Shown here: one piece after another, positions 10,379 through 56,778 of the stretch
Layout of the letters: every line of letters begins with the position of its first letter
Position numbering within the stretch: position 1 is the first letter of the stretch
Assembly: GCA_965235115.1 (NCBI GenBank)
Contig: OZ249436.1
Location: forward strand, 28,584,001-28,648,000
Length of the DNA: 64,000 bases
Source of the DNA: Laetmonice hystrix
Taxonomy: Eukaryota
Reading direction: 5' to 3'
The notes under the pieces: model-generated
Database searches by the model: none
Seen by the model: the letters and a program-made list of their open reading frames with translations, nothing else
Told to the model about the DNA's origin: nothing
Program-made: the position numbers and the translations under genes

Positions 10379-10696
10379 CAATATCCGGCTCCTTGAGTAT
10401 ATATCGGATGGGCCAGAAAAAACAGGAATCCTATTTACTTGACTATATAGCGTCTACAATTTACATAGTTTGCCCATGATATTTGGTGCATGATATGGCA
10501 TGGTTGTGGCGAAAACTTCAGGCATATAGGTTAAGTGGTAAGGAATCAAACACCACATGTCGAAAACTGCAATGCCGGAGAGACAATAGATTTCAGACCT
10601 ATTTCAGTTGATCTGGCCGGCCACCTGTTTTTGACAGGTGGCATTTGATTGACATATGTCGCGTCATTCAGACAGAGTGGCACCAACCCTGACTAA

Positions 10697-11948: not shown

Positions 11949-12028
11949 AGTCAGAGATCCTGGATTGAGCGGGTGTTCTACAAGAGGGAATGCATCAAGT
12001 TCATAGCTGTCAATAAGGAAAAGACAAA
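11949..12028 (+). CDS. TRPM3: TRPM exon: N-terminal [27 protein letters not shown]
   Basis: tttcag acceptor, aa|gtaag donor; matches the TRPM3/7 N-terminal SWIE..F.KREC motif; phase joins 23588. Missing from the ORF track. Confidence 0.9.
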
Positions 12029-21000: not shown

Positions 21001-24000
21001 GAAAACTGATGAGACTTGGTGGCAGTTTCATTAGGAATGTATCAATTAGAATGCCAACATTCGGATTTCCTCTGAAGGTCCTTGCAACTTCTCATTAATT
21101 ATCTATGGTTTTATTTTTCTTTCAGAATGTTTAATTAATCTGTTTTAAAATAAGCGTGTGCTAGTGGAACTGATTGTTTGTGGTATTGATACTCACATTT
21201 CATATATGTTGAAGATTATATCAGAACGCCAACCTGAGGTATGTGAACGTTTAGCCTGTCGTGCTACAGTAGGATGGACTGTTCAAACGTCGTGCACACT
21301 GTGGCACTGCAGCACTTCAATGTTCATCAGAGCATTTGATCACAGTGATTCACTTGAGCTTTTTGTGGCTTCACGTCATCGCTTGACCATGGTTGCGCGT
21401 CTTCAAAGCACACACCATGAAGTTGCACGCATTATGCTAGAACAGTTGTATGGTTGTGGGTGAAATCCAGCAAAGTGTATGTAGGAAAAAAGGAGAGATA
21501 GATGTCACCGTCCAGCTGCTAGTGGCATTATTATCTCCATGTTGGGTTTTAGGATAAGATTTTGTACAGTGGTGAGTCGGATATAATCCGACTGAAGTGT
21601 AGACTCTATACTTTAGCACAAACTTGAAACTGCATAATGATTTCAAAACCTGAGCACATATCTTACATTACCCATTCTTATACTCAGCTTTTCATCCTAG
21701 AATTATATAGATGATAATTATCTGATTAACTGGTCGGCAGTTTCCAGTGATAGAAGATAGTACATTTACCAATGCAAATCATTTGATTAGGTTAACAGCA
21801 CTTTGATGTTGGTGGTAGTGATTTTGTTCATTTCCGCTATGTCGTACCTGAATATTTTGAACGGACACAATAAAAATTATAACACTCCGCTGATTGAAGG
21901 GTAGAGTTTATAGACACGATTATAATCTGGCATAGTTTCAGCAGACTCAGCAGTGCCCTGAACGGAGGGATGCACGTATTAACACCATGCCCTGGTTGTG
22001 TCCCGTCCGACAGTATGTTGCACTCTCTTTACACGGCCATATCTACTACTGCATCACCTCGCCCTGCCCCGGCCAAGCCATTTGTCCGGGGCAAACAAGA
22101 AACAGTAGGAGTTATCATGATGCACAATTGGTGACAAAAAGAGTGGCCAACTTTGAATCAGCGTATGGTATATTATTATTAATAAGTAAAGACACTTTGA
22201 AATTGCTCAGTTGGCGCTGTTCTGCACCATGGGTGGTAAATAGCAGCAGAGCGGGGATGTTCCGAAAATAACTAGGTTGGTGTAGATATGTGAAACCGAG
22301 TACCTGTTTGCACTCGATGCCTCTCCCAGAAACCACGACACTACCTCCTGTGTACACGGCAAGATGGGAAGATGCACCCAGTGGCCAGCAAAAGTTGTAT
22401 TGTGGATACACTGTGTCCACTTGAACTGTTACCGGTCTGTAGAGATTTACGAGGACCCTAGCTCAACCCAAACATTTTAAACACGGAAATGTATCGGTAA
22501 AGGTTCCCAATGGGCCTACTTAAGCTACGGAGAAAGGGCAAGAAAATTAAGGTGAAGGTTGCCACGATTGTAGAGAGGAAGACGTCCAGCCGTTGCTCTT
22601 ATCATTTGGAATATAGGAACCATCTACTAAGGTAGGGACTTCAGGGTGTGTTCTGCAGGAAGCGTTAATGGCAAGACTGCCTTAAATCATTTTGGTTGTT
22701 GACATAGGCTGTACAATTCTGTCGTCATAGTTAAGTGAAGGGTCTTGCTTCAAGTCCCTTTTCTGGAGCCTAGTCCCTTAACTGGAGTTCTAACTTGTGA
22801 GGTGACTAACGTATTTGAGTGTGCCAAATACCGGGCAGACGGATTTGTAATCCTCTTGGTATTGGCGGCGATAGCTTAGGGGGCAAAAGGTGGGAATAGA
22901 TTGGCATATGGACCCGACGTCGGCTGTCTTTATTGGCCATTTACTATTGCCCTTAGGGTAAACCAGTCAGCCATATTTCACCAGAAGCTGTGTGGCGCCA
23001 ATGACTAATGAGCAAATATACGTGACAGTATGACCCAGAGCCATACTTCTCAATTGTCGCACCAACGCCAGTATTTAAACATTAATTCTGTAGAAGGGTA
23101 TGGCGGGGAGGAAGATCGTGTAAATCACACGTATATCTCATGGGTCTATTTACATAACTCAAGAGTGGGTACGAATGTATCTTTACCCTGACAGAACTTC
23201 TGGTTATAAATATGTGACGAATACCAGCATTCTTGATGCTGAGCAGTCTGATTGGCTAAGCCGCCTCTTTCACTCTTTGGTATTAAATGGCTGCAGACAG
23301 AAGGTCAATTCAGTATTAGCATAAAGCAGAATCAGGCATTTATTTACGCTCCTCCGACGTAACGTCGGAGTGGCGGGAATTGCGATCCGTTACCGCCCAC
23401 TCTCTCGACTGAAGAGATTGATGTAGATTATGAACGGCCCCTCCCGTAACTATACACCGTAGACGTAGAGTAGACTAGGTCTATGCTATACACAGTGTTT
23501 CCTTGCCTGACCCAGGCGTGCGGTACGGTGATCTTCACGACCCCGTATGACCTCAGCATTTTGTAGCGTACTCGACGTTATTTTCAGATGTGGGTGCGGA
23601 CGTCCTCAGACGAAGCACTTCTACCTGCGCAACACCGCCTCTCCAGTCCTGTCCAGTGGGGAGGCCGAGAAATGGAACGTCCAGCGGCACACCGAGCTCT
23701 CCCCGACCGACGCTTACGGCACGATAGAATTCCAGGGTGGCCCCCACCCAACCAAGGCCCAGGTAACTATTAAACAATTCCAGGGTGGGCCTCGCCCAAT
23801 CAAGGTCCCGGTAACTATTAAACAATTCCAGGGTGGTCCTCGCCCAATCAAGGTCCCGGTAACTATTAAACAATTCCAGGGTGGCCCCACCCAACCAAGG
23901 CCCAGGTAACTATTAAACAATTCCAGGGTGGGCCTCGCCCAATCAAGGTCCCGGTAACTATTAAACAATTCCAGGGTGGCCCCCACCCAACCAAGGTCCC

Positions 24001-27000
24001 GGTAACTATTAAACAATTTCAGGGTGGCCCCCACCCAAACTAGGCCCAGATAACTATTAAACAATTTCAGGATGGACACTACCAAACCAAGGCCCAGGTA
24101 GGCCTAACTATTAAACAATTCCAGGATGGCCCCCACTCGGCCATGGCCTAGGTAAGCCTAACAATTAGACATTTCCAGGGTTGCCCCCACCCAGCCAAGG
24201 CCCAGGTAACTATTAAACATTTCCAGCATGGTCCCCACCCAGCCAAGGCCCAGCTAGGCCACTATTAAACAATTACAGGGTGGCCCGACCCAACCAAGGC
24301 CCAGGTAACTATTAAACAATTCCAGGGTGGCCCCCACCCAACCTAGGCCCAGATAACTATTAAACAATTCCAGGGTGCATGGCCCCCACCCAACTAAGGC
24401 AACTATTAAACAATTCACTCAGGTAGCTAGTTAACAATTCCAGGATGGCTGTCGCCCAACCAAGGGCCATGTAACTATTAAACAATGAATTCCACCCCAC
24501 CCCCCACCCCCCAACCAAGGCTGAGGTAAGTATTAAACAATTCGCCGGTTTTCCGGCGAACCGTTGAATATCGTTTTTTTAGGGGGCGAAATTGATTTTT
24601 TTTAGCAGATTCTTGATCATTTTGAAGAAATCCTGGCGAGAATTCGCGTGGTATTAACGATTATAAGCGATTGTCTTCGACTATACTGTTCGACTACTTG
24701 CCTCCGACGATAGTCATATTCGGTGGTTCGCCGAGAAATTATGTCCTCGCACTTGATAAACTATTTCACGGCGAACCGTCAAATATGGAAATTAGGCCCA
24801 AATAAGGTAATAAAATGGTTCATTGTCGCAGTGTTCACGTATGCATAGCCACTTGTTGAATATTCACGCCGAGAATAGGCGTTTCCCGGCGAACCAGCGA
24901 ATATGCGTCAAATATGCAATAGAGTCTCTTGGGATCGACTTACCTGTAAGGCGTCGAATATGCCTTCCTATATCGCCAGAAATTACTGTTAGCGTCAAAA
25001 AGATTCCAACGTATACCGTATCGTATTCTATATTAGCGATTCCCATAAAAACTTTAAGGACGTTTGAGAAAAGTGCAAAACTTCAAGTACGTTTTTCGCA
25101 GCTCCGTCAAAACCCCATGTTCGACGGTTCGTGGGGAAACGCGACGATTATTCCAGGGTGGCCCCACCCAACCAAGGCCCACGTAGGCTAACTAGACAAT
25201 TCATGGGTGTCACCCACCCAAAGGCGGATCCAGAGGGGGACACAGGGGGCACGTGCCCCCCGTTAGCTTCACTAATTATAGGCCTACACGGCTATAGCCT
25301 GCTCATTTTTAATTAATTTTAACACTGACGGTGTGTCTCAGGGAAACCCCGAGCAATTATGTAGGCCTATACCTCTAAAACTCTCATTCAAGAGCATGAG
25401 CTTTAATTAGTAATGCAAACAATCATGAATTGCTCTTCTGTACCCGCCCCCCTTTAGTGAAATCCTGGATCCTGAATCCGGGGTAACCTCCAGCTAACCA
25501 ACTCCCACGTAACAGGATTCTGGGATGTCTCCAACCCACCCAAAGCGTAGAAATTACATTCGTGTTTGTACGTTCCAAATATTTCCAAAGGATTATGAGG
25601 TTCTAATTCACTATTTTACTCGGTGACCATGATATTAATCTGGGCGTGATTGTTATCTCCATTGTGTTCCAGTATGTCCGAGTGTCCTATGACACTAAAC
25701 CCGACCTGATCCTACAGCTGCTGCAAAAACAGTGGGGGCTCGAGCTGCCCAAACTCCTAATATCCGTCCACGGCGGCATCGCCAACTTTGACTTACAACC
25801 CAAACTGAAGCGAGTCTTCCGCAAGGGTCTCCTGAAGGCTGCCAAGACGACCGGCGCCTGGATCGTCACCGGCGGTACAAACACAGGTGGGCCTGGGGAT
25901 GGGTGCCTTGGGGAGGGCATGGCCTAGTCGCCTTATCTTAGGCTGAATGCAGGGGACCGTCATGTGTAGTGGAAGGAAACGGGGTGCCTGGGGCGGGCGG
26001 AGGCAGCCTTGGGAACTGAGGTGGATTACATTACCGCGACAGGAACCGTTCGTATATAATGGGGGCAGGGCGCTGGGACAGGCACAGGGAGGGCGCGTGA
26101 TATCGGGTGGAATAAATAAGGGTGACAGCGAACATTAATATATTGAAGAAAGGGAGGGGAGTGCGTATTCGACGTAACTTCTTATAGCTATTTAAGTGCC
26201 TTACGTCGCCATTTAGCCGTATTAGTGAAACGGAAAGTGACAAGTAATTTGAGGGAGCATTCATCAAAGTCATTAAACGTGACTTGAAATGTAACTTAAC
26301 CCCAATGGATTCTATTTTTTCGTAGTCCTCCTTGGTTAACCACAACTGGGACAACGTCAGAGCCGTTCGGCGTGGCCAGTCTCCAGATAAGAGGTCCGTT
26401 TTTTGGTTGTTTTCTTTTGTGCAGGTGTGATGAGACACGTCGGGGACGCCTTGGGGGACACCCTGGTACAGGCTCGCAATAACGTCGTCACCATCGGCAT
26501 CGCTCCGTGGGGCGTTGTACACAACCGCAACGACCTGATCGGCAAGGATGTGAGTGGTTCCCTATGTTAGAAACTAACGCCGACACATGGCTGCACAGAC
26601 CTCCACCTCACACTCACAGCTGCTGTGTGGATGTCACATGGCTGCACAGACCTCCAACACCCACAGCTGCTGTGTGGATGCCACATGGCTGCACAGACCT
26701 CCAACACCCACAGCTGCTGTGTGGATGTCACATGGCTGCACAGACCTCCAACACCCACAGCTGCTGTGTGGATGTTACATTTTGTCCTCACTCAATGATT
26801 TATACAAAACTCTAACAAAAACTGCACTCATGGGTAATCACTATGATGATTTATTCCGCAAAGCAGCATAAACGTTTCGTATTTTACGTTAATTTTTTTT
26901 AAACGTCTGGAATGGCTTTTTGAGAAGTCGTAGAAGTTTGAAGCATGAATATAGAAAACAGTGATTGTTTCAAGGTATATCAGACCTTCAGCTCTCTATA

Positions 27001-30000
27001 TTAAATCCCAATATTTTACTGCATAAATAACAAACGTCGAAAGAGATTTTTATATGGGAGGAGGATTATTTTGTGTCGCATTCTTCATTTGAATTATTCT
27101 CCTTCCATATTTACATAGTCGTTTTTTGGGTGATGCTGAACAGTGGCGGATTCAAAGGGGCCACCCCCCCCCCCACCCCACCCCCACCCCCAATTTTACC
27201 CGAGCAATGTTTCATATAGATGGGAGTAACTCTTGCCTATTTTGTGCTAATAAAAATAATTGAATCTCTTTGAAAGATTTGGGAGAAATTTCTACTCTCT
27301 ATGTTCAGAAAACACGTCTCTGGCGTTCCTGACAGAAAGATTCTAGGGGAGGGCCACCAGACCCCCCCCCCCCCGAATATGGGCTGCCTTCGGTAGCCAC
27401 CGATTGTCCACCAAAAGGTGGGCCCCAAATTTCCTGAAATCCTGGATCCGTCAGTGTTGAATGAGTTCAATCTTTTTAATGCAAACTATTGGGAATCAAT
27501 CTCTAATTGCTTTTTATGTAAAAGTGGTTTAACTGGAGAGATTTTGAGGATCCAACTTTATAGTAATGTTCTACCAAATCTAGGACCGATGGAAATTATT
27601 TTTAAATAAATTATGTGCGTAACGTAAAGTAAATTCGTAATTGTAAGCATTTTTGTGCCGATGCAAGCGTTGTGTGATCTGCACAAGAATAATCAGCTGC
27701 TTTCAACTTAGATAAAACATAACATTGCAACATATAAAAAACGGACTGCGGTTTTAATGCTGATATACAGTGAACCCGAAAGGTTTTTTTTATCAAGCTC
27801 TCTGACATATCCCTTGAAGTGTCTGCTTTTCCTTTCAAATATTTTTTTGTTTTCATGGAGTAGATGTAAGACGTGGAGTATAGTATAGTTTTTTGTAGCG
27901 CACTGTGTGTACGCATCTATTAACACATAGCCATGTTTATCCTGTTGTAGGTGCCCTCCAGCAAACAAAAGGTAGTCTAAATATGAAGTTGTTTGTGGCA
28001 CTGTATAGATGGTATTCAGTTGGCCATCTGTCTCGTGATGACAAACCGATATCTCATGAATAACTTTGGTAGTATTATTATATTTATTAGTATTAATATT
28101 ATTATCTTTTTCTTTTTGTTTTTGTCTGTGTGTTTTGTGTTGCATGCGTATACTTTTGCGGGCTCTGTGAAAACTTTCTATACGTGACGTATGATAAATA
28201 AAGATTGTTGTGTATATAGCCATTGTGACTTTCAGAATATGTAATATATGTAATATATCCAAGTAACATCGATCCTGGCAGGAAAAGTGCCAGAGGTACT
28301 TATAGTGGGGGCTTTACCCCCACCTTTCATAAGTTTACTCTGATCCGATTGAAATAGTTTGTTCTTTCCAAATGTACCAATTATACACGCTGAATGAATA
28401 ATGGTCCTTAATGAACACCGCGACCGTAAAAGACCGCCGGTGGTTGCAGATACCCTGCGGGTTTGATAATTGATCAAAGCAGGCCTTGGTCTTACCGCAC
28501 ACCATGAAGGAATCGCATTATTTAACTAAAGTACGCATCAGTCTACATCTCACCGAAACACGAAAGATGATATATACACATGCTTTGGACTGCATGATTG
28601 AGCTTATCACTGAGGTGCCATCCTCAGAAGAAACCCTATCCACATGAACGAGTGCTCTCAAGAGAAAGATAATTTTCGTTGTTTATGAAATGATATAACA
28701 CTGCGGTAACTATAGCTGAACGGTTGAGACAATTATCTTTTCAGACGGTCACACCCTATCATGCGATTGCCTCGCCGAAGACCAACAATGTTGTGCTCAA
28801 TAGCAATCATTCATACTTCATTCTTGTCGACAACGGCACGGTTGGCAAGTATGGTGCAGAGATATTGCTACGGAAGAAGCTCGAGAAATACATCTCTCAA
28901 CAAAAGATCATGACCAGTAAGCATTCGTCATCGGCCATAATTGCGAGTTGTTTGGCAAGCGCCAAAGTCTTTTGAAGATAATGAAGCTTCAAGTGTGAAT
29001 GTATCTAAATATAAATCATGTAATGGCAGGCATGCGGTTGTTATACATAATCAACAGGGTATTTGTTACCGGTGCGACAAGTGCATTGCCCCCGCCCTTG
29101 ACGTGTGAAATTGTAGACACATTATGCAGCTGATACATTTGTTCCATAAGAGGCCTGTAGCTGTAGTGTAGATCGAAGCTTAGTCGAAAAGTTTATGACT
29201 CCGCCACTGCGGGCCGCCGCCTAAAGGGGTGGGGTGGGGGGGGGGGGGGTCATGTGGCCATGATCTTTGGCAGCGGTTCCTAGTTATCATTAGTTCTTTC
29301 ACACTACTTTCTGAATTGACCATGTTGCGCCCCCCCCCCCCCCGTTTTAAGATTCCTCTGGGACCCCCACCTCCTAAGTTTCGTGCGTGTTCTCGTTTGA
29401 CAGGGAGTGGCACCAAGAGTTACAGCACGCCAGTGGTCTGTCTGATTCTCGAGGGAGGCACCAACACCATCCGTACCGTGCTCGAGTGTATCACCGACTC
29501 GCCGCCCGTGCCCGTTGTTGTCTGTGATGGAAGCGGACGTGCCGCCGACTTGTTGGCATTCACACACAAATTCGCTCAAGACGATGGGTACGTGTGAACG
29601 TTCGTGATTCCAAACAGGCCCGCGAGGTGGCGCGCGGTGTGGTGCTGCCGGTCACCGCTAGGGGGACCCCGGCAGTGACAGTGGGCTGGTTGGGTGTTGT
29701 GCGGTCTCGTTAACAGCTTCTTGTTCAACCCTTTGTCGTATTACAGGAAGGATCGCAGACTTATGGAAACTCTGGGAAAGCCCTGGAAAAATAAAAATCT
29801 TTTCTGCTCCTGGAAAACCTCAAAGAAATGAATTAGAATCTTGCAAACTCCTGAAAAATTGGCAGTTATTTTGTATCAATATTTCTTCTGGTGTAATGCT
29901 CATATTTGTGTTTTCTTTTGGAGACTGCACTTACTGCAGCAGTCACAATGTCTTGCCGAGAGACTGCTATAAAGAAAGTATTAAAAAAATGCATTTTTAT

Positions 30001-45000: not shown

Positions 45001-48000
45001 TGTACATGCATTATAAATCGAAACTTTTTTTCTGTAGCAGGAATTATGTATTATTTTCGTTATCCTTTTCCCCCTTAATTTGCCCATTAAAACTTGTGTC
45101 AGTTGAGAAAACGATATAATGGCATTCAGATAGTCATCATATGTTCTAGTGCCGGTTTATTTCTATGATCTTAGTCATGCCAGTTTCGTGGTGTCGAAAT
45201 TGAGGGAACATTTGTTTAGACAAAAGTGTGATTTGATGTTGAGCAGGAATTGGTCAGCTTAATTGGCGGACTTGTTTCATTCCTACGACTTAGTTCAATA
45301 AAGTCTGCCTGACGTCGGATATTACTGCGCAAATCTTTTACAGCACTTTTTTTCTAAATCTACACCATTTAGTCATCAAGCACATTATTGAGAATGGCTC
45401 TTTATTAATGGTATTTGAGCACCTGTAGTCCACGTTATTAGTTTGGCATTAGAATCACACACAAAGTAGTACTAAGATGCTTTTATTACTGAGCTTTGCT
45501 ACGGTAGTGGTGATGTGCCAGTATTACAAGGGACAAATACAGAAAGGATACTTTTCTATGATTAAAACATATTGGCAGTCGTATGGCTAACATGAATTAA
45601 CGAGGAAAAGCTATTGTAAAAAACACATTGTATCTGTACCGCCATGATGCGATAGAACGAAAGTTCCGTTATAGACCTTGCGTAAAAACTCAAAAGGATA
45701 AAAATCTAATGTGTAAAACGCTGGCCTAAACGCCATCACATATATAAATAATTGATTTATAACACTGAACTTCCCCCACGAAATTCACAGAGCTCAGCCA
45801 GAGCGCTACATTGATGTACAGCGTCGTCTCATTCGAGATTCAGTTTGCAGTTAGGAATTCAAAAGTTGACATAATATGTTATGCTTAATAGTCTGAGTCA
45901 ATGTGTACTACTAAACATGATAGCTTCCACAGCAGGATAAACAACCATTCAGAATGATGTGTAAACATAAAAGTTTTAGTTTACTATTATTCCATTATTA
46001 CAGATAATTTGTTTTCTTCAGGGTCATCACATAGGAAACATTGTAACCGAAGTACCAATGCCTGTTGAAATGTCGGTCCAGGAAGTTTTCAAATACCCAT
46101 TTAACGAGCTCATGATTTGGGCCGTGCTCATGAAACGGCAACGGATGGCAAAGTTCATGTGGCAACACGGAGAAGAGGCCCTCGCCAAGGTAAATCTGGA
46201 CCATATTCAATGCATATATTTGTGTAATTGCGACGGGAGTATTTATTGGAAAGGATCAAATAGTTTGAACCCATATTCATACTCTTCGCCTATCTGATAG
46301 GACGTAAGAATGATGGCCCTTGCAGGCTTGGTATTCGTAAGTGTGCTAAGAATTAAGTTCCATTCCCAGCTGGATAAGGAAACGAGCAAGACTCTCCCTT
46401 CTCCCTTTCTTACACCGTCTCTCCTTCATCAGTTTGCTTGCCCTAATCGCTTACCGTAGTTGTATTCTCTTGCTCTTGTATTCCCCTGGGCCCGTAGGCT
46501 CTGGTCGCCTCAAAGCTCTACAAGAGAATGGCTGGCGAGGCCGCCCAGGACGAGCTTGAGATGGATATCTACGAGGAGCTGCGCGGCTTTGCCAGGTCAG
46601 CATTATCACCCCCCCCCCCCCCCCCACCGTCCATGTCGGGATATATGGGTTGGACCCCGACTAGGCTGGCCTGGGGACGCCAAGAACAGGATCTGACAAT
46701 GGTCTAGACCCCATGTTGATTGTGCTGCTGTGGCGGGATGTTTAAATCCACCGGTAATCCCCTTCTCCCACCCACCTAATACCAGTCAGCAACGTAAGAT
46801 GTCGACACTAGGAGGTCAAGCTTTCCATGGGGATTGATTGATTGAAATATAATCAGGCCACGTCTCTGGCTGATGGCAACGCTGATCCTGTTGAGGGTTC
46901 GGAATGCAGGTCGGATCGATGATGCATTGAACTCAACCTAATATATATAGTATACGTCGATAAAGAGTTTTGTTTCATACACATACAAACATACTTCACT
47001 TCAAGTGGGCCCCTTTAAGAAGAATTTAACCTGTCATATCTGATTGATGGATTAAAGAGATGTTGACCTCAGGTACAAACATATCTGACTGTATACATGG
47101 TATCTGTTTCCGCAGTGAGTTCGCAAACCTGGCCTTGGAGTTATTGGACCATTGCTACAAGACGGACGATGACTTAACCCAGCAATTGCTCACCTACGAG
47201 CTTCAGAACTGGTCAGAACAAACTTGCCTCAGTTTGGCTGTCTGCGCTTCACACCGCGAGTTCATCGCGCATACTTGCTGCCAAATCCTGCTTAGCGAGA
47301 TGTGGATGGGAGGATTGCGGATGCACAAGTACACATTCATCAAGGTTAGAGTCTACACTCTACAGGCTAAAAGATTTTGATCATTTGAGATTCTTAGTTT
47401 AGAGATGCCAAGGATGGGGGACTTGGTTAAAGGAGTCTTGTGATGAAACAAAAACCTATGTAGCTAAGATCAGGGCCATCTTTTTTTAAACACAGGTGCT
47501 TGCTTGAGGTTAGCGCTTCTAAGCAGACCGGCCAGTCAGAAGTGGAAGCAAAAACCTAAGTTTTGAAAATCGGGGCCCAGATGATTGAGTCATGGGATTG
47601 AATTGGATTTTAAATCGAATTGAATGTATTTTAAAGTGCTGGTCGGTTGACATAATTGGGTTATTGGCTTCCTTTTAAGCCAGAACACCCTTGGTAAGAA
47701 CAATACGTGCAGGGTACTACCGATGTGTCATGTGTGCTTCCCTTGGTTTTCAGGTCATTCTCGGGATAATATTCTTCCCAACGATTACCTTCATGGAGTT
47801 CAAGTCCAAGGAGGAGCTTCAGCTGATGCCGCAGACCATGGAGGAACACATCCAGGACCTGGAGGATTCTGACTCAGATACCTCCTCGCTCCACTCGGAT
47901 GGCGATGACGACAGTCACGCTGTGGTGGGTGTAACCCTCAAATAAACAGAACCCTCAAATTAAAAAAGAAACCTTCAATACTGATTTGAAATTTCTACAA

Positions 48001-51000
48001 AACATCCTTAAGCTATGCTAGCTGTAGAGACATGTTATCATACTCTTACCTGGATTTGAAATTTATTCCTTTATAGATACCAAAGAGTTCAAAGACCAAG
48101 AGTTGGTCAATGGTTAGTACTTATTTCATCATCTGAAGTGAAAAAGGTGACACCATATCAAGGGCCACCTGTGATTCGGTCTTCCTGCACTGACGTTATG
48201 GAACATTTTGTAGTAGTCTAGAGTGCGATTTAGAATAATAGACGGCATAGATTACCGAGTTCACTTGTGTACATACGTATAGCAAGGTGATTTGATAGTA
48301 CATAGTATACACCCTCTATCCTTGAACCCTGAAGAGAAAGATGAGCATTGAAGTATCGTAACCCTTGAAAAATTGCTCCACGTATTGTGAACCTCGGAAA
48401 TACTAGAAGATGCTGTTAAAAGTGACTCGTCCGTTGTTTTATAATTCTTACTTAAAGTATCTATATTGAAAGAAAACAATTAGAGTTAATTCAATTACAC
48501 ATGTATATAAGGTCCCAACGTATTTACAGAATTATGTATAATGACATTTGACGGCCGTTGACTGAAAAAGGGTAGTATCTTTTGCTTGTTATTGCTAGTA
48601 ACATACAAGTATGTCTGTTAACAACTTGGGGCAATTGTTTGACATTGGTAGGTACGGGTAGACTCTGTGGTCGTAAGAGAAACATTAGTAGACGTATCTC
48701 ACCTTCAGTGATACTCCTATAGTACCAGCTGCACTTGAATGCCCAGGGCCCGGTTTGTCAAAACTTTATTTCGCACTTAAGTTTTAACGCTTACATCAGA
48801 GGCGTTAAGCTCAAACTTAATCAAGAACTTAAGTTTTGAAAAACCTAGCTCTTCTCACACTGACTGCTTGCTGGACGGGTAGAAAAGGTACCTTCCCCAT
48901 GGGTGATCAGAATACGTGACGGGTCTCCCGGGTTACAGCTAAAGTTCCTAATCACATTTTACCTCAGGGATGTTTTAATAGGATACTGCACGAAATGAGA
49001 GGGGGTAAAATACGCCTAAGATGCGTAATCAGGCTCATTAGAGGACTAAGCCAATTTAAATTTCCTAATAACGTTTCACGGCGCTGTAATCATGGGCAGC
49101 TGAAATGACGCGTCTGGTGCTGCTCGCCCGCCGCCATTGAAGTCATATCATATGCACGTGAATCCTTTTGTTTTCTCTCAGCAATGAGATGCTAACGTCG
49201 GGTCGTTTTCTGGAGGGACTCGACAGAGAGCTGTGTATGCGTTAATTGAGACTGAAGCTTGAAGGGTATTGACGGCGCTGTTTTACAGACAGTGCTGGGA
49301 TTGCATTAAGTTAGAAATGTTAACCAGTACCTTGGGCTGGCAGAAGTGAGAAGCTTTCCAACGCAGAGTGGAAAGAAAACAGTGAACATCGCATATATTT
49401 GATTTTGATTTTGAATACACATGAATGTGAAGCCCCTGAGAATATACTCTTCTGATGGAAAAATTAGCATAGGTGATTCGGAAGTGACAAGAAGTCGCTA
49501 TATATAGGCTCTCAAAAGAAGCCAATCGTACCATTGATTGGTATGCACCAGCGTGTTTCAGGGGGGACTGACAATTATATATCAAAATGTGTGGTCGGCC
49601 ATTTCTGACTTGTCTTGATTGGCCATGTATGATTTTCTATCAGGGTTTCTTAGGGGACTTATGGCTATCTTAGGAGTAGGTTTTTTGAGGGAATCCCCCC
49701 CCCCTAAAAAAAGGTTGGCAGGAAATCCTGCATATATCCGTCTCTTTTACCGCTTTGTAGGCAGTTATGTGTGAATTAGAGATTTGAATCCTTGTCTAAA
49801 TATTAGTCCCTCAGGAATCGATCAGGATCAGTCATCATTTAAGATTCTTGCGGGTTGAGTCAGGAAAGGTACAATTATGATTTAGATATCGACTGTGGGC
49901 GTTCAGTCAGTTACCCTTGATTCAGACCTCAAATGTGGGCATAGAGTGTCTGCTGTGGTAGCCAGGTTGAGTCAGCCATTGCATCTTTGATTTAGTTCCC
50001 AAATGTGGGCATAGAGAGCCTACTGTGGTATCCAAGTTCAGTAAGTCAGTTACCCTTGATTCTGACCTCAAATGTGGGCATAGAGAGTCTACTGTGGTAT
50101 CCAGGTTGAGTCAGCCATTGCAACTTTGATTTAGTCCCCAAATGTGGGTATAGAGAGCCTGCTGTGGTATCCGAGTTGAGTCAGCCATTACATCTTTGAT
50201 TTAGTCCCCAAATGTGGGTATAGAGAGCCTGCTGTGGTATCCAAGTTGAGTCAGCCATTGCATCTTTGATTCAGTCCCCAAATGTGGGCATAGAGAGTCT
50301 GCTGTGGTAGCCAGGTTGAGTCAGCCATTGTCCCCAAATGTGGGCATAGAGAGTCTGCTGTGGTATCCGGGTTGAGTCAGCCATTGCATCTTTGATTTAG
50401 TCCCCAAATGTGGGCATAGAGAGTCTGCTGTGGTAGCCAGGTTGAGTCAGCCATTGTCCCCAAATGTGGGCATAGAGAGTCTGCTGTGGTATCCGGGTTG
50501 AGTCAGCCATTGCATCTTTGATTTAGTCCCCAAATGTGGGCATAGAGAGTCTGCTGTGGTAGCCAGGTTGAGTCAGCCATTGTCCCCAAATGTGGGCATA
50601 GAGAGTCTGCTGTGGTATCCGGGTTGAGTCAGCCATTGCATCTTTGATTCAGTCCCCAAATGTGGGCATAGAGAGCCTGCTGTGGTATCCGGGTTGAGTC
50701 AGCCATTGCATCTTTGATTCAGTCCCCAAATGTGGGCATAGAGAGTCTGCTGAAGACGCCTGCCATGGCCATCAATGGGACCATTCTCAACCCTGACCTC
50801 AGCATGACCTTCAGGAAGAAGAGCAGCCCCCTCAGGCTGGGCAAGAAGATCTACGAGTTCTACACAGCGCCTGTTACCAAATTCTGGGTGCACACGGTCA
50901 GTAATTATCTCATTTTAACCCACTACCCCCAACTGCCCCCCCCCCCCCCCAAAAAAAGAGAAAAAAATGTTCTCGCTATCACTGCAGTTTTAAAAAGAAA

Positions 51001-54000
51001 CGTAATGAAATGGCAATGTCGTCCTTATTGAGGCATATGATATCAGTAGGATGCCATAATCATGATATCTTCCATTCTTCTGATAAAGGTAATAATATAG
51101 CAGTGGGTGGAGGGTCCCTTAGTATGCAAGTAGTATTTGTTTATAAGACGCAGTGTATGAGCTGATACTAAATTATCAATCTAAAGATAAAGATTCCATT
51201 GAGAGAGAAGAGTGACTTATATTGTGTGTGTGGTTATAGCTGGGTTACATCGCTTTCATGATGGTGTTCACGTACGTGGTGTTAGTACGTCTGTCTACGA
51301 TCCCGTCATGGCAAGAGATCTACATCATATCTTATCTCTTCACAATGGGAATCGAAAAGATGCGTGAGGTAACCAATGAATACTTGTCTGACGTATATAC
51401 AAAGTGTTCATGATAAAGCCTGCCATTAAAGGTTGCATGTTTGACACCAGTCTGTAGTAACAAAAGCATATTTAAATCCATTTGTGTTTTCCTCGTATTT
51501 TCAAAGTAAATGCCATCCCCCAGTTTGAATGTTGCAATTTATTACGTGCGTTTTCTTTGCAGATAATAGCCTCTGAACCAAAGAAACTTGTACAGAAGTT
51601 GTTGGTATATTTCTCGGAGATATGGAATTTGTCGGATTCAATAGCCATCTTGATATTCTTTGTGGGGGTAGGTCTACGCTTGTATCCGCCCACACAAGGT
51701 CACGGTCGAGTCATCTACTGTGTGGACATTATATTCTGGTATGTCCGCATCTTGGATATCTTCAGCGTCAACAAATATTTGGGACCCTATGTCATGATGA
51801 TAGGGAAAATGGTAAGCCCAGTGTGTGTCAGAAATGCAAAAAAATAGGCTCCATTGGTAAAAATGTCATTTTCTTTGGTTATTCTTAAGACGAGCAAAAT
51901 TAATGATTACAGGTTCATGCCGGATAGCTCATAAAAAGTATGATGTAGAAATACAATATACATGTAGTTCGAATAGTACCGAGTAGGTCAATATTCATTG
52001 TGGAATACATTAGACTTTTCTTGGAAGGCGCGCCTCTTGGATCCAGGATCTTGCCCATGGAGACAGGCTGACTTGCCCGACTTTTCGTTAATAGCGCTAG
52101 AGAAGAATTGCCCGCACCTGGGTCCCTTTCCTATATATAGCTTTGTGTTTTCTACCAGGTGAAAGATATGGTCTACTTTATTGTGATTTTGCTGGTGGTG
52201 CTAATGTCCTTTGGCGTGGCAAGGCAGGCAATACGATATCCGTACAAGGATGCAAGCTGGGAGCTTGCCAAAGATATTTTTCTAAAGCCGTATTTTATGA
52301 TCTATGGCGAAGTGTATGCAGACGATATTGACCGTGAGTAGGCTGTACATTTTTCATAGATAGGAACAGTAGTAAAACTAAAATCAGATCGCATATATGT
52401 GATGTATTATTTCACTTCATAATAATTAAAAATATATGGAAATGAGTTAAAAAGCCTATGGTACTTTGGAGCCTAAATCTTTCTCGGTAAAGGAAAAGAA
52501 AGCTGGGATAAAAACTTATGCATCATTTATGGGTCCGTTTCTTTACTTGTTGCTATGAATGTGTGTTTTAGCGCCGTGTGGGATAACGGAGGGGTACGAG
52601 GAGTGCGTTCCCGGAAAATGGATCACCCCAGCTATCATGGCCATATACCTGATCGTGGCTAACATCCTTCTCATTAACCTTCTCATAGCCGTCTTCAAGT
52701 TCGTACCAGCTACATATTGAAAAAAAAATCTTTGACAGACGAAAAAACAATCGTATTTACATCGGTATTCAATGAAGCAGCATAATCATGTAAAATACTG
52801 ACAGACAGCTTTCAGTTTTTGAGGACAGATTTATGTATCGAGGGTAACATAAATTGGTGTTTAAATAAGTTTGAATGTATAAGATCCTCGTCCATAATTC
52901 CAATTTATGAGTCCGCTTACATTCTATACGACGCCGATGTCGGTCAGCACGAATACCCTGCAGCCTTTAACTATCCGTTTCTAATGTTGCTTGCAGTAAT
53001 ACATTCCACCAGGTGAACGCTATCTCGACCCAGGTATGGAAATTCCAGAGATATTCATTGGTCATCGAATACGAGTCGAAGCCCATCCTCCCACCACCCT
53101 TCATTCTCATCTGCCACATTTATCTCATCTTCAAATATCTGATACAACGCTGTAGGCGCAAGCGGGAATACTTTGACAACGGATTGAGTGAGTACAAACT
53201 GCCCGCACGCATTGCAGTTTATTTCTTTAAAAACCTTCGGTGTCTGGCAAGTATATGTGTGTAAGGGTCTTGCGGGGGAGGGGGACTTATGTTGACAGAT
53301 TGTGTAATGTTTATTTTATGCTGTTTCCACAGAGTTGTTCCTGAGTGACGAGGACGTGGAAAAGGTGCATGATTTTGAAGAAGAGTGTGTAGAGGATTAC
53401 TTCAGGGAGAAAGAGATGCGGTTTCAGTCTTCTACCGACGAGCGCATCAGGTTAACGTCAGAACGGTGGGTACTCGAACGTAGACATAGAGATACACACA
53501 TTGGTTTCATCAGTGCCTGGCACCGCATGATTCACACATCAGGTTAACGTCAGAACGGTGGGTACCAGAACGTAGACATAGAGATACACACATTGGTTTC
53601 GTCAGGCACCGCATGATTCACACATCAGGTTAACGTCAGAACGGTGGGTACCAGAACGTAGACATAGAGATACACACATTGGTTTCATCAGTGCCTGGCA
53701 CCGCATGATTCACACATCAGGTTAAAGTCAGAACGGTGGGTACCAGAACGTAGACATAGAGATACACACATTGGTTTCGTCAGGCACCACATGATTCACG
53801 CATCAGGTTAACGTCAGAACGGTGGGTACCAGAACGTAGACATAGAGATACACACATTGGTTTCGTCAGGCACCACATGATTCACACATCACGTCAGAAC
53901 GGTGGGTACCAGAACGTAGACATAGAGATACACACATTGGTTTCGTCAGGCACCACATGATTCACACATCAGGTTAACGTCAGAACGGTGGGTACCAGAA

Positions 54001-56778
54001 CGTAGACATAGAGATACACACATTGGTTTCGTCAGGCACCGCATGATTCACACATCAGGTTAACGTCAGAACGGTGGGTACTCGAACGTAGACATAGAGA
54101 TACACACATTGGTTTCGTCAGGCACCACATGATTCACACATCACGTCAGAACGTGGGTACCAGAACGTAGACATAGAGATACACACATTGGTTACCTGGC
54201 ACCACATGATTCACGCATCACGTCAGAACGGTGGGTACCAGAACGTAGACATAGAGATACACACATTGGTTACCTGGCACCGCATGATTCACGCATCACG
54301 TCAGAACGGTGGGTACCAGAACGTAGACATAGAGATACACACATTGGTTTCGTCAGGCACCGCATGATTCACGCATCACGTCAGAACGGTGGGTACCAGA
54401 ACGTAGACATAGAGATACACACATTGGTTTCATCAGTGCCTGGCACTGCATGATTCACGCATCACTTCAGAACGGTGGGTACCAGAACGTAGACATAGAG
54501 ATACACACATTGGTTTCGTCAGGCACCACATGATTCACACATCAGGTTAACGTCAGAACGGTGGGTACCAGAACGTAGACATAGAGATACACACATTGGT
54601 TTCGTCATTGCCTGGCACCGCATGATTCACGCATCACGTCAGAACGGTGGGTACCAGAAGGTAGACATAGAGATACACACATTGGTTTCGTCAGGCACCG
54701 CATGATTCACGCATCACGTCAGAACGGTGGGTACCAGAAGGTAGACATAGAGATACACACATTGGTTTCGTCAGGCACCACATGATTCACGCATCAGGTG
54801 AACGTCAGAACGGTGGGTACCAGAACGTAGACATAGAGATACACACATTGGTTTCGTCAGGCACCGCATGATTCACGCATCAGGTTAACGTCAGAACGGT
54901 GGGTACCAGAACGTAGACATAGACATACACACATTGGTTTCATCAGTGCCTGGCACCGCATGATTCGTGCGGCTTGTAGGAGGCCTTGCATGGGTCTTTT
55001 AAAGCTCTACTGGCGAAGTAATTTGAGGACATCTAATTTAATAGAAAGATAATGCATGACTTGCGATAGCACATACTTGACAGGATCCCTTGTTAACTAT
55101 ATAGTTTCTTTGTTTTAACAGAGTGGAGAATATGTCTTTAAGGATGGACGACATGAACCAGAAGGAAAATGCCATGAAGTTGTCGCTCCAGACTGTAGAC
55201 TACCGCTTGGCCAAACTGGAGGAGGTCGCCCTGCAGACGGCCGAATCTCTCTTTCTCCTCCAGCAACTAGTGACCTCCAGCCGAGTACTCCAGCACCAGA
55301 TGTCCTCGGACGTGGAGGCGGAGAGTTCTGGAGGAGAGAGCTCCACAAAGACAGAGGGGCAGAGTCCTCCGTTCGTGTTTCCCGGGGGGAGCGTGCCGCC
55401 GCAGGTTCCCAAGAAGTACCGGATGAACGAGGACCGGTTGCGGCCGTTTACCGACTACAGCCAGGCGGGTCAGCGCAAGCCGTTCTCCCGGGCCGTAACA
55501 CTGGGCGCCCCGCTCTCCGGACCCGACATGGTGCCGTCCAACTTCAGGGTGGCGCGCCAAACGTCCATGTTCACACGCCAGGCGTCTATATTCTCACCGC
55601 CGCCGCCAGAACCCAAACCCAAACCCAAAGCCTCTCAAAAGAGCCTAAGCGGGCCCCACTTGGGCTCCGAGTTGTACTATAGAAGGAGAAGCAAGGCCCT
55701 TTCAAGGTTGCGCAACCAGGGTTTAGTAACCAAAGCATTGAAGGAAGAGGAGGAACCCCATAGTAAAAAACGGGATTCACGGGTTACATTCAGTGACCCT
55801 CCATCCCAGGAGCAGAGTCCTTGCCAGCGTAAGGCCTTCTCACTGGATGCTGTAGACACGCTCATGGTGGAGCAGGACAAGCCGGCCGACCAGGCCAGGC
55901 CCGACAGTACGCCGGCCAGCGCCACCCCTGGCTACCCGGCCAAGGGGCCCGGCTCCCATGGGTTACATCTGGCCTCTCACATGCACATGCATCGCCAAAT
56001 ATCGTCTCCAACACCGCCAGTGTCAATACCTCCCCGGCGGCAGGCAACCCCCCCGTCTAGCCTACCGAACGTAGTGACCATGCCCAAGCCGGCCGGGCCG
56101 CCCGGCATGGCGCCCATCACACCCATAGTGACCCCCAATCGTTCCGACTATACCACCATCACCGACGAGATTGATACCTCCGGCGTTAACTACACGTCGC
56201 CCATTGGATCCCCGCAGACGCCGCGCCGTATCTTCTTCGGCATCGACGTCAACGTGGACCTGTACACGAAGAAAGGCAAGCCGCAGAAAACGGCCATCCG
56301 AACCGAGGCCGAGCAGCTGAAGAACGCTGAGGAAAGCGAGCATGCTGAATTGGAACTGGTGATCCGCAAGAGAATGCGACAGATCTCGCTGACGGAAAGC
56401 GACAGCATGAGTGATATTGCCAAACATATCGTCCAAGAACTGGAATGCAACCACGAGGAGAAGGTGGAGGAACCCGGTTACCATAGCGACGAGGGCGAGC
56501 CTTCCCATTGGCGGGAAGAGAAGGTCGCGTCGAGCATTGCCAAAGTGAACTCGGAACCTCTGTTGTCCAAGTTTGGCGAGGACGAAGAGAGGTGTACCGG
56601 AGGTGAAGCTGTCGTCGGCAGTGGTGGTAGGCCTCGGCTGAGTAGAGCCAAGACTCTGAGCGGCAGTCCCACGGACACCGACCCCCTCAGCCAGTCCACG
56701 CCGGCCGCCACCTTCTACTGGCCCGACAACAGCCCCAAGGCCAAGCCCAAGCTGTCCAAGAGGGAGACGAAATGTTGA
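11949..56778 (+). CDS. TRPM3: TRPM3-like transient receptor potential melastatin channel (TRPM1/3/6/7 clade, no kinase domain), 24 core coding exons, 5' start exon not located
   Basis: join(11949..12028,23588..23762,25673..25886,26425..26549,28745..28916,29404..29587,32224..32347,32749..32818,36396..36496,38576..38710,39053..39103,39528..39659,46022..46189,46498..46595,47116..47344,47754..47924,50723..50896,51240..51368,51563..51811,52159..52333,52572..52698,52997..53187,53333..53465,55122..56778) = 5064 nt, all GT-AG, phases consistent. Motifs: [90 protein letters not shown] box WKFQR. Symbol denotes the closest vertebrate paralog, not proven 1:1 orthology. Confidence 0.93.
12907..13062 (+). 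mobile_element. Truncated copy of the PIF/Harbinger-like MITE at 31265..31535, in the opposite orientation
   Basis: Near-identical to the reverse complement of 31389..31535; preceded by tta. Confidence 0.85.
13228..13360 (+). mobile_element. Possible 3' remnant of a LINE ORF2 (Rex-Babar/L2/CR1 group)
   Basis: Peptide SGYRF....[10 protein letters not shown] resembles the LINE C-terminal SFFP.AIRLLN motif. Confidence 0.35.
14170..14560 (-). mobile_element. Possible decayed LTR-retrotransposon (Gypsy-like) integrase fragment
   Basis: Peptide QPWERVLID....PVRTNGGNR resembles the rve entry motif P(F/W)ERV.ID..GPLP.T..GN. Confidence 0.35.
17426..17561. mobile_element. MITE of a ggccc...caaaacttaag TIR family; related copies at about 47471..47580, 48744..48851, 59211..59328
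   Basis: ctgggcccagttctttcaaaacttaagtccttgcttaaac pairs with gtttaaacaagaatttatgtttggaaaaagtgggaccag; similar ends at the other loci. Confidence 0.7.
23588..23762 (+). CDS. TRPM3: TRPM exon: CGCGRP...[30 protein letters not shown]
   Basis: ttttcag acceptor, cag|gtaact donor; MHR1 motif PTDAYG.IEFQGG. Confidence 0.93.
23728..24540 (+). repeat. Tandem array (48-bp unit, about 16 copies) made of the last 35 nt of exon 23588..23762 plus the first 13 nt of its intron
   Basis: Unit aattccagggtggcccccacccaaccaaggcccag|gtaactattaaac; further degenerate copies at about 25151..25220 and 25480..25560. Confidence 0.95.
24541..25150. mobile_element. About 610-bp non-autonomous DNA transposon inserted into the 48-bp array
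   Basis: Imperfect TIRs (ttcgccggttttccggcgaaccgttgaata / tgttcgacggttcgtggggaaacgcgacga); flanks rejoin as tattaaacaa|ttccagggtgg, one array unit. Confidence 0.7.
25222..25473. mobile_element. MITE of the ggcggatccag...ctggatcc family
   Basis: Ends aggcggatccagagggg and aaatcctggatcc; related to 27141..27456. Confidence 0.6.
25673..25886 (+). CDS. TRPM3: TRPM exon: [12 protein letters not shown]...[10 protein letters not shown]...[12 protein letters not shown] (MHR1/2, SLOG fold)
   Basis: ttccag acceptor, cag|gtgggc donor; strong TRPM motifs. Confidence 0.95.
26425..26549 (+). CDS. TRPM3: TRPM exon: VMRHVGDAL...[20 protein letters not shown]
   Basis: tgtgcag acceptor, gat|gtgagt donor; HVGDAL and IGIAPWG motifs. 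Confidence 0.95.
26584..26776. repeat. Minisatellite, 47-bp unit cacatggctgcacagacctccaacacccacagctgctgtgtggatgt, 4 copies
   Basis: Tandem copies starting about 35 nt after the donor at 26549. Confidence 0.95.
27141..27456. mobile_element. MITE with cagtggcgga / tccgtcagtg termini
   Basis: Terminal inverted repeats and G/C-run subterminal regions. Confidence 0.7.
28745..28916 (+). CDS. TRPM3: TRPM exon: TVTPY...[38 protein letters not shown]
   Basis: tttcag acceptor, a|gtaagc donor; [16 protein letters not shown] motif. Confidence 0.95.
29404..29587 (+). CDS. TRPM3: TRPM exon: [10 protein letters not shown]...[19 protein letters not shown]
   Basis: gacag acceptor, gg|gtacgt donor; conserved motif. 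Confidence 0.94.
31163..31705. mobile_element. Nested MITE complex: inner PIF/Harbinger-like MITE 31265..31535 (TAA flanks) inside MITE about 31186..31680, possibly inside a third element
   Basis: Three concentric pairs of inverted repeats; inner TIR about 50 bp (gtttccatagaggtcacgttttcacgtgtcacg), middle about 40 bp (tcacacgggggcgg.tttgaaggcggt.cagca), outer about 20 bp (tttttcaaa..ttaa). Confidence 0.8.
32224..32347 (+). CDS. TRPM3: TRPM exon: [41 protein letters not shown]
   Basis: tttag acceptor, ctt|gtaagt donor; resembles the corresponding TRPM3 helix region. Confidence 0.92.
32379..32593. mobile_element. Tc1/mariner-type MITE (tactgta...tacagta)
   Basis: TA-flanked inverted ends with internal ttcgcg / cgcgaaatt repeats. 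Confidence 0.6.
32749..32818 (+). CDS. TRPM3: TRPM exon: [24 protein letters not shown]
   Basis: ctccag acceptor, g|gtaagt donor; [12 protein letters not shown] motif. Confidence 0.94.
33408..33535. mobile_element. Short inverted-repeat element (MITE-like)
   Basis: tttgtctgacagtggccacaaacttgaa pairs with ttcatatttgtgaccactgccaaaccaaa. Confidence 0.55.
36396..36496 (+). CDS. TRPM3: TRPM exon: [33 protein letters not shown]
   Basis: tttcag acceptor, ccg|gtaaga donor; WNRVDIARS motif. Confidence 0.95.
37200..37520 (-). mobile_element. Possible decayed pogo-like DDE transposase fragment
   Basis: Minus strand gives NDETG followed, after a frameshift, by [11 protein letters not shown], resembling the pogo N.DETG..LEHK motif; heavily degraded. 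Confidence 0.3.
37787..37845. repeat. (TAG)n microsatellite, interrupted
   Basis: gtagtagtag runs. Confidence 0.9.
38576..38710 (+). CDS. TRPM3: TRPM exon: [45 protein letters not shown]
   Basis: ttttag acceptor, att|gtaagt donor; [13 protein letters not shown] motif. Confidence 0.95.
39053..39103 (+). CDS. TRPM3: TRPM short exon: [17 protein letters not shown]
   Basis: ttccag acceptor, aag|gtaaaa donor, phase 0/0; occupies the position of the TRPM3/7 'TL..LVRDVK' segment. Confidence 0.85.
39528..39659 (+). CDS. TRPM3: TRPM exon: [44 protein letters not shown]
   Basis: accag acceptor, aag|gtatgc donor; NLPP.Y and LMGGAYR motifs. Confidence 0.94.
40603..40812 (+). CDS. Candidate cassette exon (70 aa, Ser/Pro/Gly-rich: [25 protein letters not shown]...HLCPQ)
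   Basis: Pyrimidine-rich acceptor (ctttgctttctttgactgcactcag), cag|gttcga donor, 210 nt, stop-free in phase 0 matching both flanking exons; no homology recognised. Confidence 0.6.
42219..42257 (+). CDS. Candidate 39-nt micro-exon ([13 protein letters not shown])
   Basis: ttctctgtttgacag acceptor, atg|gtagta donor (weak), phase 0/0, no stop. Confidence 0.35.
43027..43050 (+). CDS. Candidate 24-nt micro-exon (SASQVAAQ)
   Basis: About 125 nt AG-free, TGC-rich upstream zone with gctaac branch-like motif; strong cag|gtatgt donor; phase 0/0. Confidence 0.55.
44182..44220 (+). CDS. Candidate 39-nt micro-exon ([13 protein letters not shown])
   Basis: Pyrimidine-rich acceptor ...ttttcctcggtggccctcag, gtg|gtaggt donor, phase 0/0, no stop. 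Confidence 0.45.
46022..46189 (+). CDS. TRPM3: TRPM exon: ...[34 protein letters not shown] (MHR4)
   Basis: ttcttcag acceptor, aag|gtaaat donor; highly conserved motif. Confidence 0.95.
46498..46595 (+). CDS. TRPM3: TRPM exon: [33 protein letters not shown]
   Basis: cgtag acceptor, ag|gtcagc donor; ALVA.KLY motif. Confidence 0.92.
47116..47344 (+). CDS. TRPM3: TRPM exon: [15 protein letters not shown]...[19 protein letters not shown]...[21 protein letters not shown]
   Basis: ccgcag acceptor, aag|gttaga donor; conserved motifs. Confidence 0.95.
47754..47924 (+). CDS. TRPM3: TRPM exon: [32 protein letters not shown]... (pre-S1)
   Basis: ttttcag acceptor; [14 protein letters not shown] resembles invertebrate Trpm; donor gtg|gtgggt chosen for phase 0, so the 3' edge is less certain. 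Confidence 0.88.
48077..48112 (+). CDS. Candidate 36-nt micro-exon ([12 protein letters not shown])
   Basis: ttcctttatag acceptor, atg|gttagt donor, phase 0/0 compatible with 47924 and 50723. Confidence 0.4.
49900..50752 (+). repeat. Tandem array (70-bp and 56-bp units, about 13 copies) made of the intron 3' end plus the first about 30 nt of exon 50723..50896
   Basis: Unit ...gagtcagccattgcatctttgatt(c/t)ag|tccccaaatgtgggcatagagagtctgctg; unit starts at 50135, 50205, 50275, 50331, 50401, 50457, 50527, 50583, 50653, 50723. Confidence 0.95.
50723..50896 (+). CDS. TRPM3: TRPM exon: [13 protein letters not shown]...[22 protein letters not shown]
   Basis: KIYEFY.AP..KFW motif, acg|gtcagt donor; the acceptor is the last unit of a tandem array. 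Confidence 0.9.
51240..51368 (+). CDS. TRPM3: TRPM exon: S1-S2 ([16 protein letters not shown]...[22 protein letters not shown])
   Basis: ttatag acceptor, gag|gtaacc donor; hydrophobic helices, PS.QE and IEKMRE motifs. Confidence 0.94.
51563..51811 (+). CDS. TRPM3: TRPM exon: S3-S4 (IIASEPKKL...[36 protein letters not shown])
   Basis: ttgcag acceptor, atg|gtaagc donor; S4 and S4-S5 linker strongly TRPM3-like. Confidence 0.96.
52159..52333 (+). CDS. TRPM3: TRPM exon: S5, pore helix and selectivity filter ([16 protein letters not shown])
   Basis: taccag acceptor, c|gtgagt donor; YGEV filter motif. Confidence 0.96.
52572..52698 (+). CDS. TRPM3: TRPM exon: outer pore loop and S6 (PPCG...[32 protein letters not shown])
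   Basis: ttttag acceptor, aa|gttcgt donor; S6 motif NLLIAVF. Confidence 0.95.
52997..53187 (+). CDS. TRPM3: TRPM exon: TRP domain (NTF...VWKFQRY...[10 protein letters not shown]...DNGL)
   Basis: ttgcag acceptor, a|gtgagt donor; TRP box WKFQR and LPPP. Confidence 0.96.
53333..53465 (+). CDS. TRPM3: TRPM exon: [28 protein letters not shown]...[10 protein letters not shown]
   Basis: ccacag acceptor, cg|gtgggt donor; HDFEE.C.E.YFREK motif. Confidence 0.95.
53444..54966 (+). repeat. Tandem array (about 78-92-bp unit, about 18 copies) made of the last about 20 nt of exon 53333..53465 plus the intron start
   Basis: Unit catcaggttaacgtcagaacg|gtgggtaccagaacgtagacatagagatacacacattggtttcgtcaggcaccgcatgattcaca; fills about 90% of the intron. 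Confidence 0.96.
55122..56778 (+). CDS. TRPM3: TRPM terminal coding exon: tetramerisation coiled coil plus about 500-aa low-complexity tail
   Basis: tttaacag acceptor; RVENMS.R...SLQTVD.RLA.LE coiled-coil motif; 551-aa ORF ending TGA. Confidence 0.93.

Follow-up and report, generated by a model that had tools for sequence, protein, structure and literature searches.

The window, which is the whole stretch of 64,000 nucleotides of Laetmonice hystrix DNA analysed here, carries a TRPM3-like cation channel gene, modelled by homologue searches, tblastn and manual splice placement (Table 1). In a quick maximum-likelihood tree of 23 proteins, its product pairs with that of the annelid Capitella (SH-aLRT 99, a long-branch row) and stands apart from Branchiostoma. 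Micro-exons proposed by the aligner at 29030-29071, 39722-39737, 44884-44906 and 49815-49868 were unsupported and were excluded from the model.

Table 1. Features of the TRPM3-like gene and its tandem arrays, in window positions
Feature	Positions	Strand	Description
TRPM3-like cation channel gene	11949..56778	+	24 coding exons within the window, one 1687-aa open frame; small extra exons possible
Exon 2	23588..23762	+	final 35 nt form the exon part of array 1
Array 1, donor mirage	23728..24538	+	48-nt unit (35 exon + 13 intron); donor 23762/23763; 16 units
Interspersed element in array 1	24541..25148	.	other copies 63-74% alike over most of their length; imperfect 40-nt terminal inverted repeats
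Displaced array 1 unit	25150..25221	+	beyond the insertion (E 3.5e-9); a partial unit may also be present (E 0.53)
High-copy interspersed element	25219..25472	.	254 nt; at least 39 other copies at 92-96% among those listed; 1044 candidates
Array 4	26584..26780	+	47-nt unit x4.1, all intronic; begins 35 nt past donor 26549, which it leaves uncovered
Array 2, acceptor mirage	49851..50752	+	70-nt unit (40 intron + 30 exon); putative acceptor 50722/50723; 14 units
Exon 17	50723..50896	+	acceptor inferred from frame and profile alignment
Exon 23	53333..53465	+	donor used in one contig of run X4, joined to 55122
Array 3, donor mirage	53445..54966	+	78-92-nt unit (21 exon + ~65 intron); donor 53465/53466; 18 units

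Six tandem arrays with a period of at least 20 and at least 2.8 copies were detected in the window with TRF, starting at 291, 10008, 23728, 26584, 49917 and 53443. As an earlier note on this DNA had claimed, three of the six lie on junctions of the gene model and a fourth (26584) begins close to one; the three straddle exon-intron boundaries, namely two donors and one acceptor, the latter being putative. The 24-mer at the junction recurs within 3 kb for 3 of the 47 TRPM junctions, which are those of arrays 1, 2 and 3 only. Array 2 comprises one additional degenerate unit at 49851 and three 56-nt variant units that lack the acceptor. When exon 2 and array 1 were used as query, all 15 matches fell at their own locus and none at other loci, unlike a transposon or dispersed satellite. 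The earlier note also saw significance in the coding copy being the terminal unit, with the array extending only into the intron. This is a correct description of the anatomy but carries no weight as evidence, since any tandem unit spanning a junction would give it once the exon-proximal site is used. Two arrays lie upstream of the first located TRPM exon, at 291-535 (27 nt x9) and 10008-10382 (48 nt x7.8).

The donor of array 1 is supported by 90% identity over the exon joint against a nemertean homologue. The provisional acceptor of array 2 was placed by reading frame and a spliced profile aligner in a poorly conserved region. For array 3, one contig of run X4 (depth 6.6) splices 53465 to 55122 over GT..AG, which corresponds to the first donor of the array. 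Run X4 was taken as RNA based on its exon-centred cover and this GT..AG joint, and its contigs drop rare isoforms; another X4 contig stops 5 nt beyond donor 47924, short of the array 2 acceptors. Intron 2 gives an indication of age: array 1 must be old because an interspersed element with such diverged copies sits within it, and the two later insertions suggest that the intron was short when the array arose. Both elements are non-coding, with 24541-25148 belonging to an old family and 25219-25472 to a young one. An origin of array 1 by 5-nt microhomology was considered and dropped, as what looked like the far end proved to be a unit that the insertion had cut, and degenerate array 1 units from 25476 onwards (64%) were not confirmed by profile search.

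Within the window, which was picked for its pattern, a post hoc count has three of the four in-gene arrays straddling a junction, against 0.3 expected gene-wide (p 0.001) and 0.7 within-intron (p 0.005, or ~0.016 after removal of the two later intron 2 insertions). A larger sample was taken from the dynein heavy-chain genes of the same genome (960 kb; one gene family, one individual). These were modelled with the spliced profile aligner, which recovered 46/46 hand-placed TRPM splice sites together with some extra micro-exons, the first splice model having been trained on those sites. Confident introns numbered 491 in the discovery set (101 arrays) and 253 in the held-out set (46 arrays), 744 in all (147 arrays); three of the held-out blocks that contain confident arrays carry on genes of the discovery set. 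One of the 12 discovery blocks (D05; weak homologues, no arrays) was left unaligned, D08 was modelled in part, and 17 arrays within gene spans were excluded as their introns fell below the confidence filter. An array was scored as straddling when it included at least 5 nt of exon. For the null distributions, every array was reduced to a single unit, which was then given a random position either gene-wide or within the array's own intron. Four predictions were fixed before the held-out blocks were fetched.

Straddling was observed for 47/147 arrays (21 donors and 26 acceptors), against 25.6 expected gene-wide (1.8x, p < 0.001) and 39.1 expected within-intron (1.2x, p ~0.055). The enrichment over shuffled positions, proposed as a genome-wide check in the earlier note, is in this sample clear gene-wide and marginal within introns. 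Among held-out arrays, 17/46 straddled, against 9.6 gene-wide (p 0.006) and 14.1 within-intron (p 0.19), and the predicted excess over the latter null did not appear. The excess sits in the three array-richest genes (39 vs 17.8), other genes giving 8 vs 7.8. A predicted surplus of acceptors over donors among straddlers failed, with 21:9 in the discovery set and 5:12 in the held-out set.

The arrays are locus-specific: a comparison of 151 units gave 11 alike pairs, every one within one gene and none between different genes. Array load tracks GC3 (rho 0.75) and the GC content of non-array intron sequence (rho 0.78) over 19 partly non-independent blocks, and its correlation with distance to the chromosome end is not significant (rho -0.37, p 0.14, 17 blocks). 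In L009-L013 (C18, 0.27 Mb from the contig end) and L024-L028 (C13, 1.1 Mb), 42% and 50% of the sequence is locus-specific minisatellite, and three other dynein blocks have none. Separately, the open frames at L027:5476-6822 (-) and L036:9090-9998 (+), both in dynein introns, look by eye like reverse-transcriptase fragments.

The positional signal is not confined to the junction itself. Arrays that end less than 50 nt short of a junction, leaving it uncovered, number 49 vs 29.5 expected, an enrichment equal to that of the straddlers, and arrays 100-300 nt from junctions are depleted (13 vs 22.9 within-intron, p 0.004). Together these argue for a bias toward exon edges rather than toward the splice site. 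As predicted, near-junction arrays were also in excess in the held-out set (35/46 vs 22.2, p 0.0003, and vs 30.2, p 0.03). The suggestion in the earlier note that repeat expansion is seeded at splice junctions by some process is therefore weakly supported: the gene-wide excess favours it, the within-intron excess is marginal and the equal enrichment of non-covering arrays speaks against it.

Transcription, splicing or nucleosome edges could be coupled to a mutational process that duplicates sequence at exon edges, chiefly in the branch-point and pyrimidine zone at the 3' end of introns. Coverage by units is highest 10-30 nt upstream of acceptors (3.0x gene-wide, ~2x within-intron), and 48/147 units include the base lying 22 nt before the acceptor, against 14.6 gene-wide and 21.9 within-intron. 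The signal at this position is also found outside the rich genes (15/43 vs 5.7) and in introns with a collapsed length of 150-400 nt (23/54 vs 9.4), and the acceptor-side peak survives masking of interspersed repeats (4.7% of intron sequence in the sample). Donor-side coverage is weaker (28/147; 48:28, p 0.03). The replicated near-junction excess points the same way, as do the straddlers with at least 20 nt of intron, which number 43 vs 27.3 after exclusion of forbidden starts. However, position 22 was chosen post hoc from pooled data, the held-out set alone gives 13/46 for acceptor and donor alike, and the acceptor surplus among straddlers reversed between sets. Array ends can also be drawn to junctions where unique intron sequence has been lost: six introns with arrays shrink to 15-70 nt on collapse, shorter than the 81 nt to which array-free introns go down (one doubtful 55-nt call aside). 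Later insertions, as in TRPM intron 2, in turn stretch intron interiors, and such losses and insertions could make part of the acceptor-side peak. Short direct-repeat density has no peak at junctions, by a measure skewed by long low-complexity introns. Taken together, we consider a dedicated process of this kind possible, though unlikely.

Pure geometry would require no positional bias at all, with minisatellites arising at random in short ancestral introns. The within-intron null, at p ~0.055 overall and p 0.19 for held-out arrays, is compatible with this, as are introns below 200 nt, where 25 straddlers compare with 24.7 expected. It is contradicted by the gene-wide null, rejected in both sets, by the depletion at 100-300 nt and by introns of 200-400 nt, in which straddlers are in excess (16 vs 9.4, p 0.009). 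The within-intron null moreover ignores the straddlers with short intron parts, which are missing from the sample. We therefore regard chance placement by itself as rather improbable.

These missing straddlers amount to a strong depletion. Only 1 of the 26 acceptor units holds less than 20 nt of intron, against 10.3 expected (p 1.5e-5), and the other 25 hold 23-71 nt; in the exception, the exon part is rich in T and includes a branch-like motif. The seven excluded arrays that overlap an exon start likewise contain 36-72 nt of intron per unit. Held-out acceptor units go in the same direction (0/5 vs 2.1, p 0.06). Of the predictions fixed beforehand, at least 20 nt of intron in more than 90% of held-out units held for acceptors (5/5) and fell narrowly short overall (15/17). 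Donor units are short of small intron parts as well (3/21 vs 9.2, p 0.003). Because all 25 planted control arrays, each with 6-16 nt of intron, were found again, the shortage is not a detection gap. YTRAY is the branch-point consensus, and in 615 array-free introns a YTRAY-like motif peaks 20-31 nt upstream of acceptors, with the nearest upstream AG at a median of 30 nt. The floor of ~23 nt of intron thus coincides with the branch-point-like peak and the AG-free zone. Were a unit to lack branch point and pyrimidine tract, splicing would take the first AG, the copies would become exonic and the allele would be purged. The alternative raised in the earlier note, namely that expansions survive only in a certain orientation, is directly supported as far as a filter is concerned, but the filter acts on the content of the unit and not on its orientation.

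The additional splice sites within the arrays were examined for signs of use. In array 1, GT is kept by 10 of the 12 listed decoy donors. The first two, in frame and stop-free, would add 16 or 32 aa and score at the 27th percentile vs the 63rd for the real site; two distal decoys outscore the real site. In array 2, 8 of the 12 upstream copies retain AG, and use of any of the 12 would lead to an early stop. All 16 listed decoys of array 3 retain the donor context, and use of any would give a stop at aa 1162. Across the dynein arrays, AG is retained in 314/346 and GT in 414/474 copies (87-91%), about what a unit identity of 94% predicts, hence selection on decoys is not apparent. That one site is picked among many near-identical ones, as the earlier note held, is borne out at array 3, in the one RNA-like contig. 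At two acceptors of block D01 (L009-L013, block positions 16844 and 46709), the decoy AG is kept in 0/12 and 0/9 copies. Several acceptor units in L014-L018, L024-L028, L034-L038 and L075-L079 regenerate AG/GT, with an exon that begins with GT, and resemble recursive-splice sites.

An intron composed entirely of repeat was encountered on C13. At L028:4999-5380 (G000:C13:1135499-1135880, -), a 382-nt dynein intron consists from GT to AG of ~12 copies of a 30-33-nt acceptor unit. Its unit comprises 20 nt of exon and 13 nt of intron, the intron collapses to 15 nt and its position is absent from the 10 paralogues aligned there. It may be either an intron that arose from an array or an array that took the place of an older intron.

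It is very improbable that the arrays in general have a function in splicing, as decoy banks, cassette micro-exons or recursive sites, or are introns being born. In favour of such a role are the in-frame insertions that the first two array 1 decoys offer, the in-frame AG located 27 nt before the GT in each array 1 unit, a potential 9-codon cassette, and the all-repeat intron on C13. Yet these internal AGs rank at the 3rd-17th percentile among real acceptors, the decoys of arrays 2 and 3 all yield early stops, and X4 displays the normal joint only, at array 3. Unit length modulo 3 has no frame bias (15/20/15), GT and AG are not retained in surplus, and 20/43 introns of the C13 gene are unshared with paralogues anyway. 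Neither intron gain nor alternative splicing was seen at the three TRPM arrays.

An assembly artefact is extremely unlikely: public contigs (four runs, one sample) do break at arrays 2 and 3, so that full array lengths are those of the assembly, but different units show their own patterned sets of variants, an old interspersed element splits array 1, and DNA-run contigs link unique flank to the distal ends of array 2 (49561-49977, 0 differences) and array 3 (from 54894).

Minisatellites of this anatomy are known as mirages, reportedly first described by Canestro et al. in 2002. PMC3087553 places amphioxus mirages in Adh3 and in the globins BflGb6 and BflGb9, at both types of boundary, with normal splicing and length instability; the mechanism is called unclear and an intron-gain model is proposed. 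Further cases in troponin C and PGBD5 are given in PMC3902484. The earlier note knew of no named system for the pattern, a statement that these mirages overturn: the TRPM arrays are members of an already named kind. In both, a tandem unit spans the exon-intron boundary, donor and acceptor types occur, and many but not all copies retain GT or AG. For splicing in the TRPM gene, one X4 contig displays the normal joint at array 3. Unit sizes overlap (10-160 bp in the amphioxus passages, 48-92 here), whereas copy number differs (3-6 in BflGb6 vs 14-18 in the TRPM arrays), as does the host, an annelid according to our tree instead of a cephalochordate. The enrichment test and the unit-content rule were made here and are absent from the mirage passages of PMC3087553 and PMC3902484. 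Neither an annelid mirage nor an enrichment test was found in the literature searched, most subscription papers being outside it.

The VNTR in intron 7 of human F7 is comparable, as its first unit spans the junction and is followed by identical pseudo-donors. According to PMC1557585, these downstream donors are functional and the most upstream one alone is used; array 3 likewise uses its most upstream donor, as judged from the one contig of depth 6.6. F7 is a single donor locus with 5-9 copies, in contrast to the acceptor arrays and the 47 straddling arrays in 744 sampled introns found here. Intron gain by tandem genomic duplication, the Rogers 1989 model as described in PMC3087553 (see also PMC3265369), shares with our arrays the duplication of sequence with splice signals. 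It differs in that the copies here fill pre-existing introns between conserved exons, with no new intron or exon in the window. Moreover, the three mirage introns contain unique sequence beyond the arrays and have only one end duplicated, unlike a Rogers-type gain.

The most likely explanation is that the arrays are neutral minisatellites with a modest exon-edge bias, passed through a splicing filter. We assign a probability of roughly 0.7 to their being locus-specific mirages without function of their own, exon-edge-biased and splicing-filtered. This reading draws on the amphioxus mirage anatomy, first-donor use in F7, the X4 joint, the dynein counts and the short-intron depletion. A stretch of 30-120 nt would duplicate in tandem and expand by unequal exchange or slippage, frequently in this genome and mostly in GC-rich, probably high-recombination regions. 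GC-linked array load fits recombination-driven minisatellite turnover, given a putative link between GC and recombination. By the counts, seeds fall within ~50 nt of exon edges more often than expected; with ancestral introns being short (median ~234 nt), about a third of arrays take in a junction. The exon-proximal copy is probably used throughout, as in the array 3 joint, leaving the mRNA unchanged and the other copies spliced out. Duplications that move branch point and pyrimidine tract away from the terminal AG would be purged, as the strong depletion suggests, and surviving acceptor units would keep ~23 nt of intron or more. Three observations stand against the explanation: the exon-edge bias comes without a direct-repeat peak, the straddling excess is limited to the three array-richest genes, and the shortage of donor units with small intron parts lies outside the branch-point argument.

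A bolder and doubtful proposal is that in this annelid the birth of minisatellites favours exon edges as well as the branch-point and pyrimidine zone, running at two to three times the random rate, via a transcription- or splicing-coupled route. Splicing would then filter them at ~23 nt, and some arrays, such as that on C13, would have replaced or created whole introns.

Whereas the three arrays in the window are ordinary examples of their kind, the straddling statistics and the unit-content depletion in 744 dynein introns are new here. A genome-wide test would be most worthwhile for the unit-content rule and the 3'-end peak. Mirages were hitherto described gene by gene in lancelets and at a few human loci, and are here frequent enough to count. 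If the dynein rate holds genome-wide, this annelid would carry thousands of natural splice-site competition experiments. The scarcity of acceptor units with less than ~23 nt of intron is a natural readout of the length of sequence that the spliceosome needs at the 3' end of an intron, and it puts the choice among identical splice sites within reach of large-scale tests by RNA-seq.
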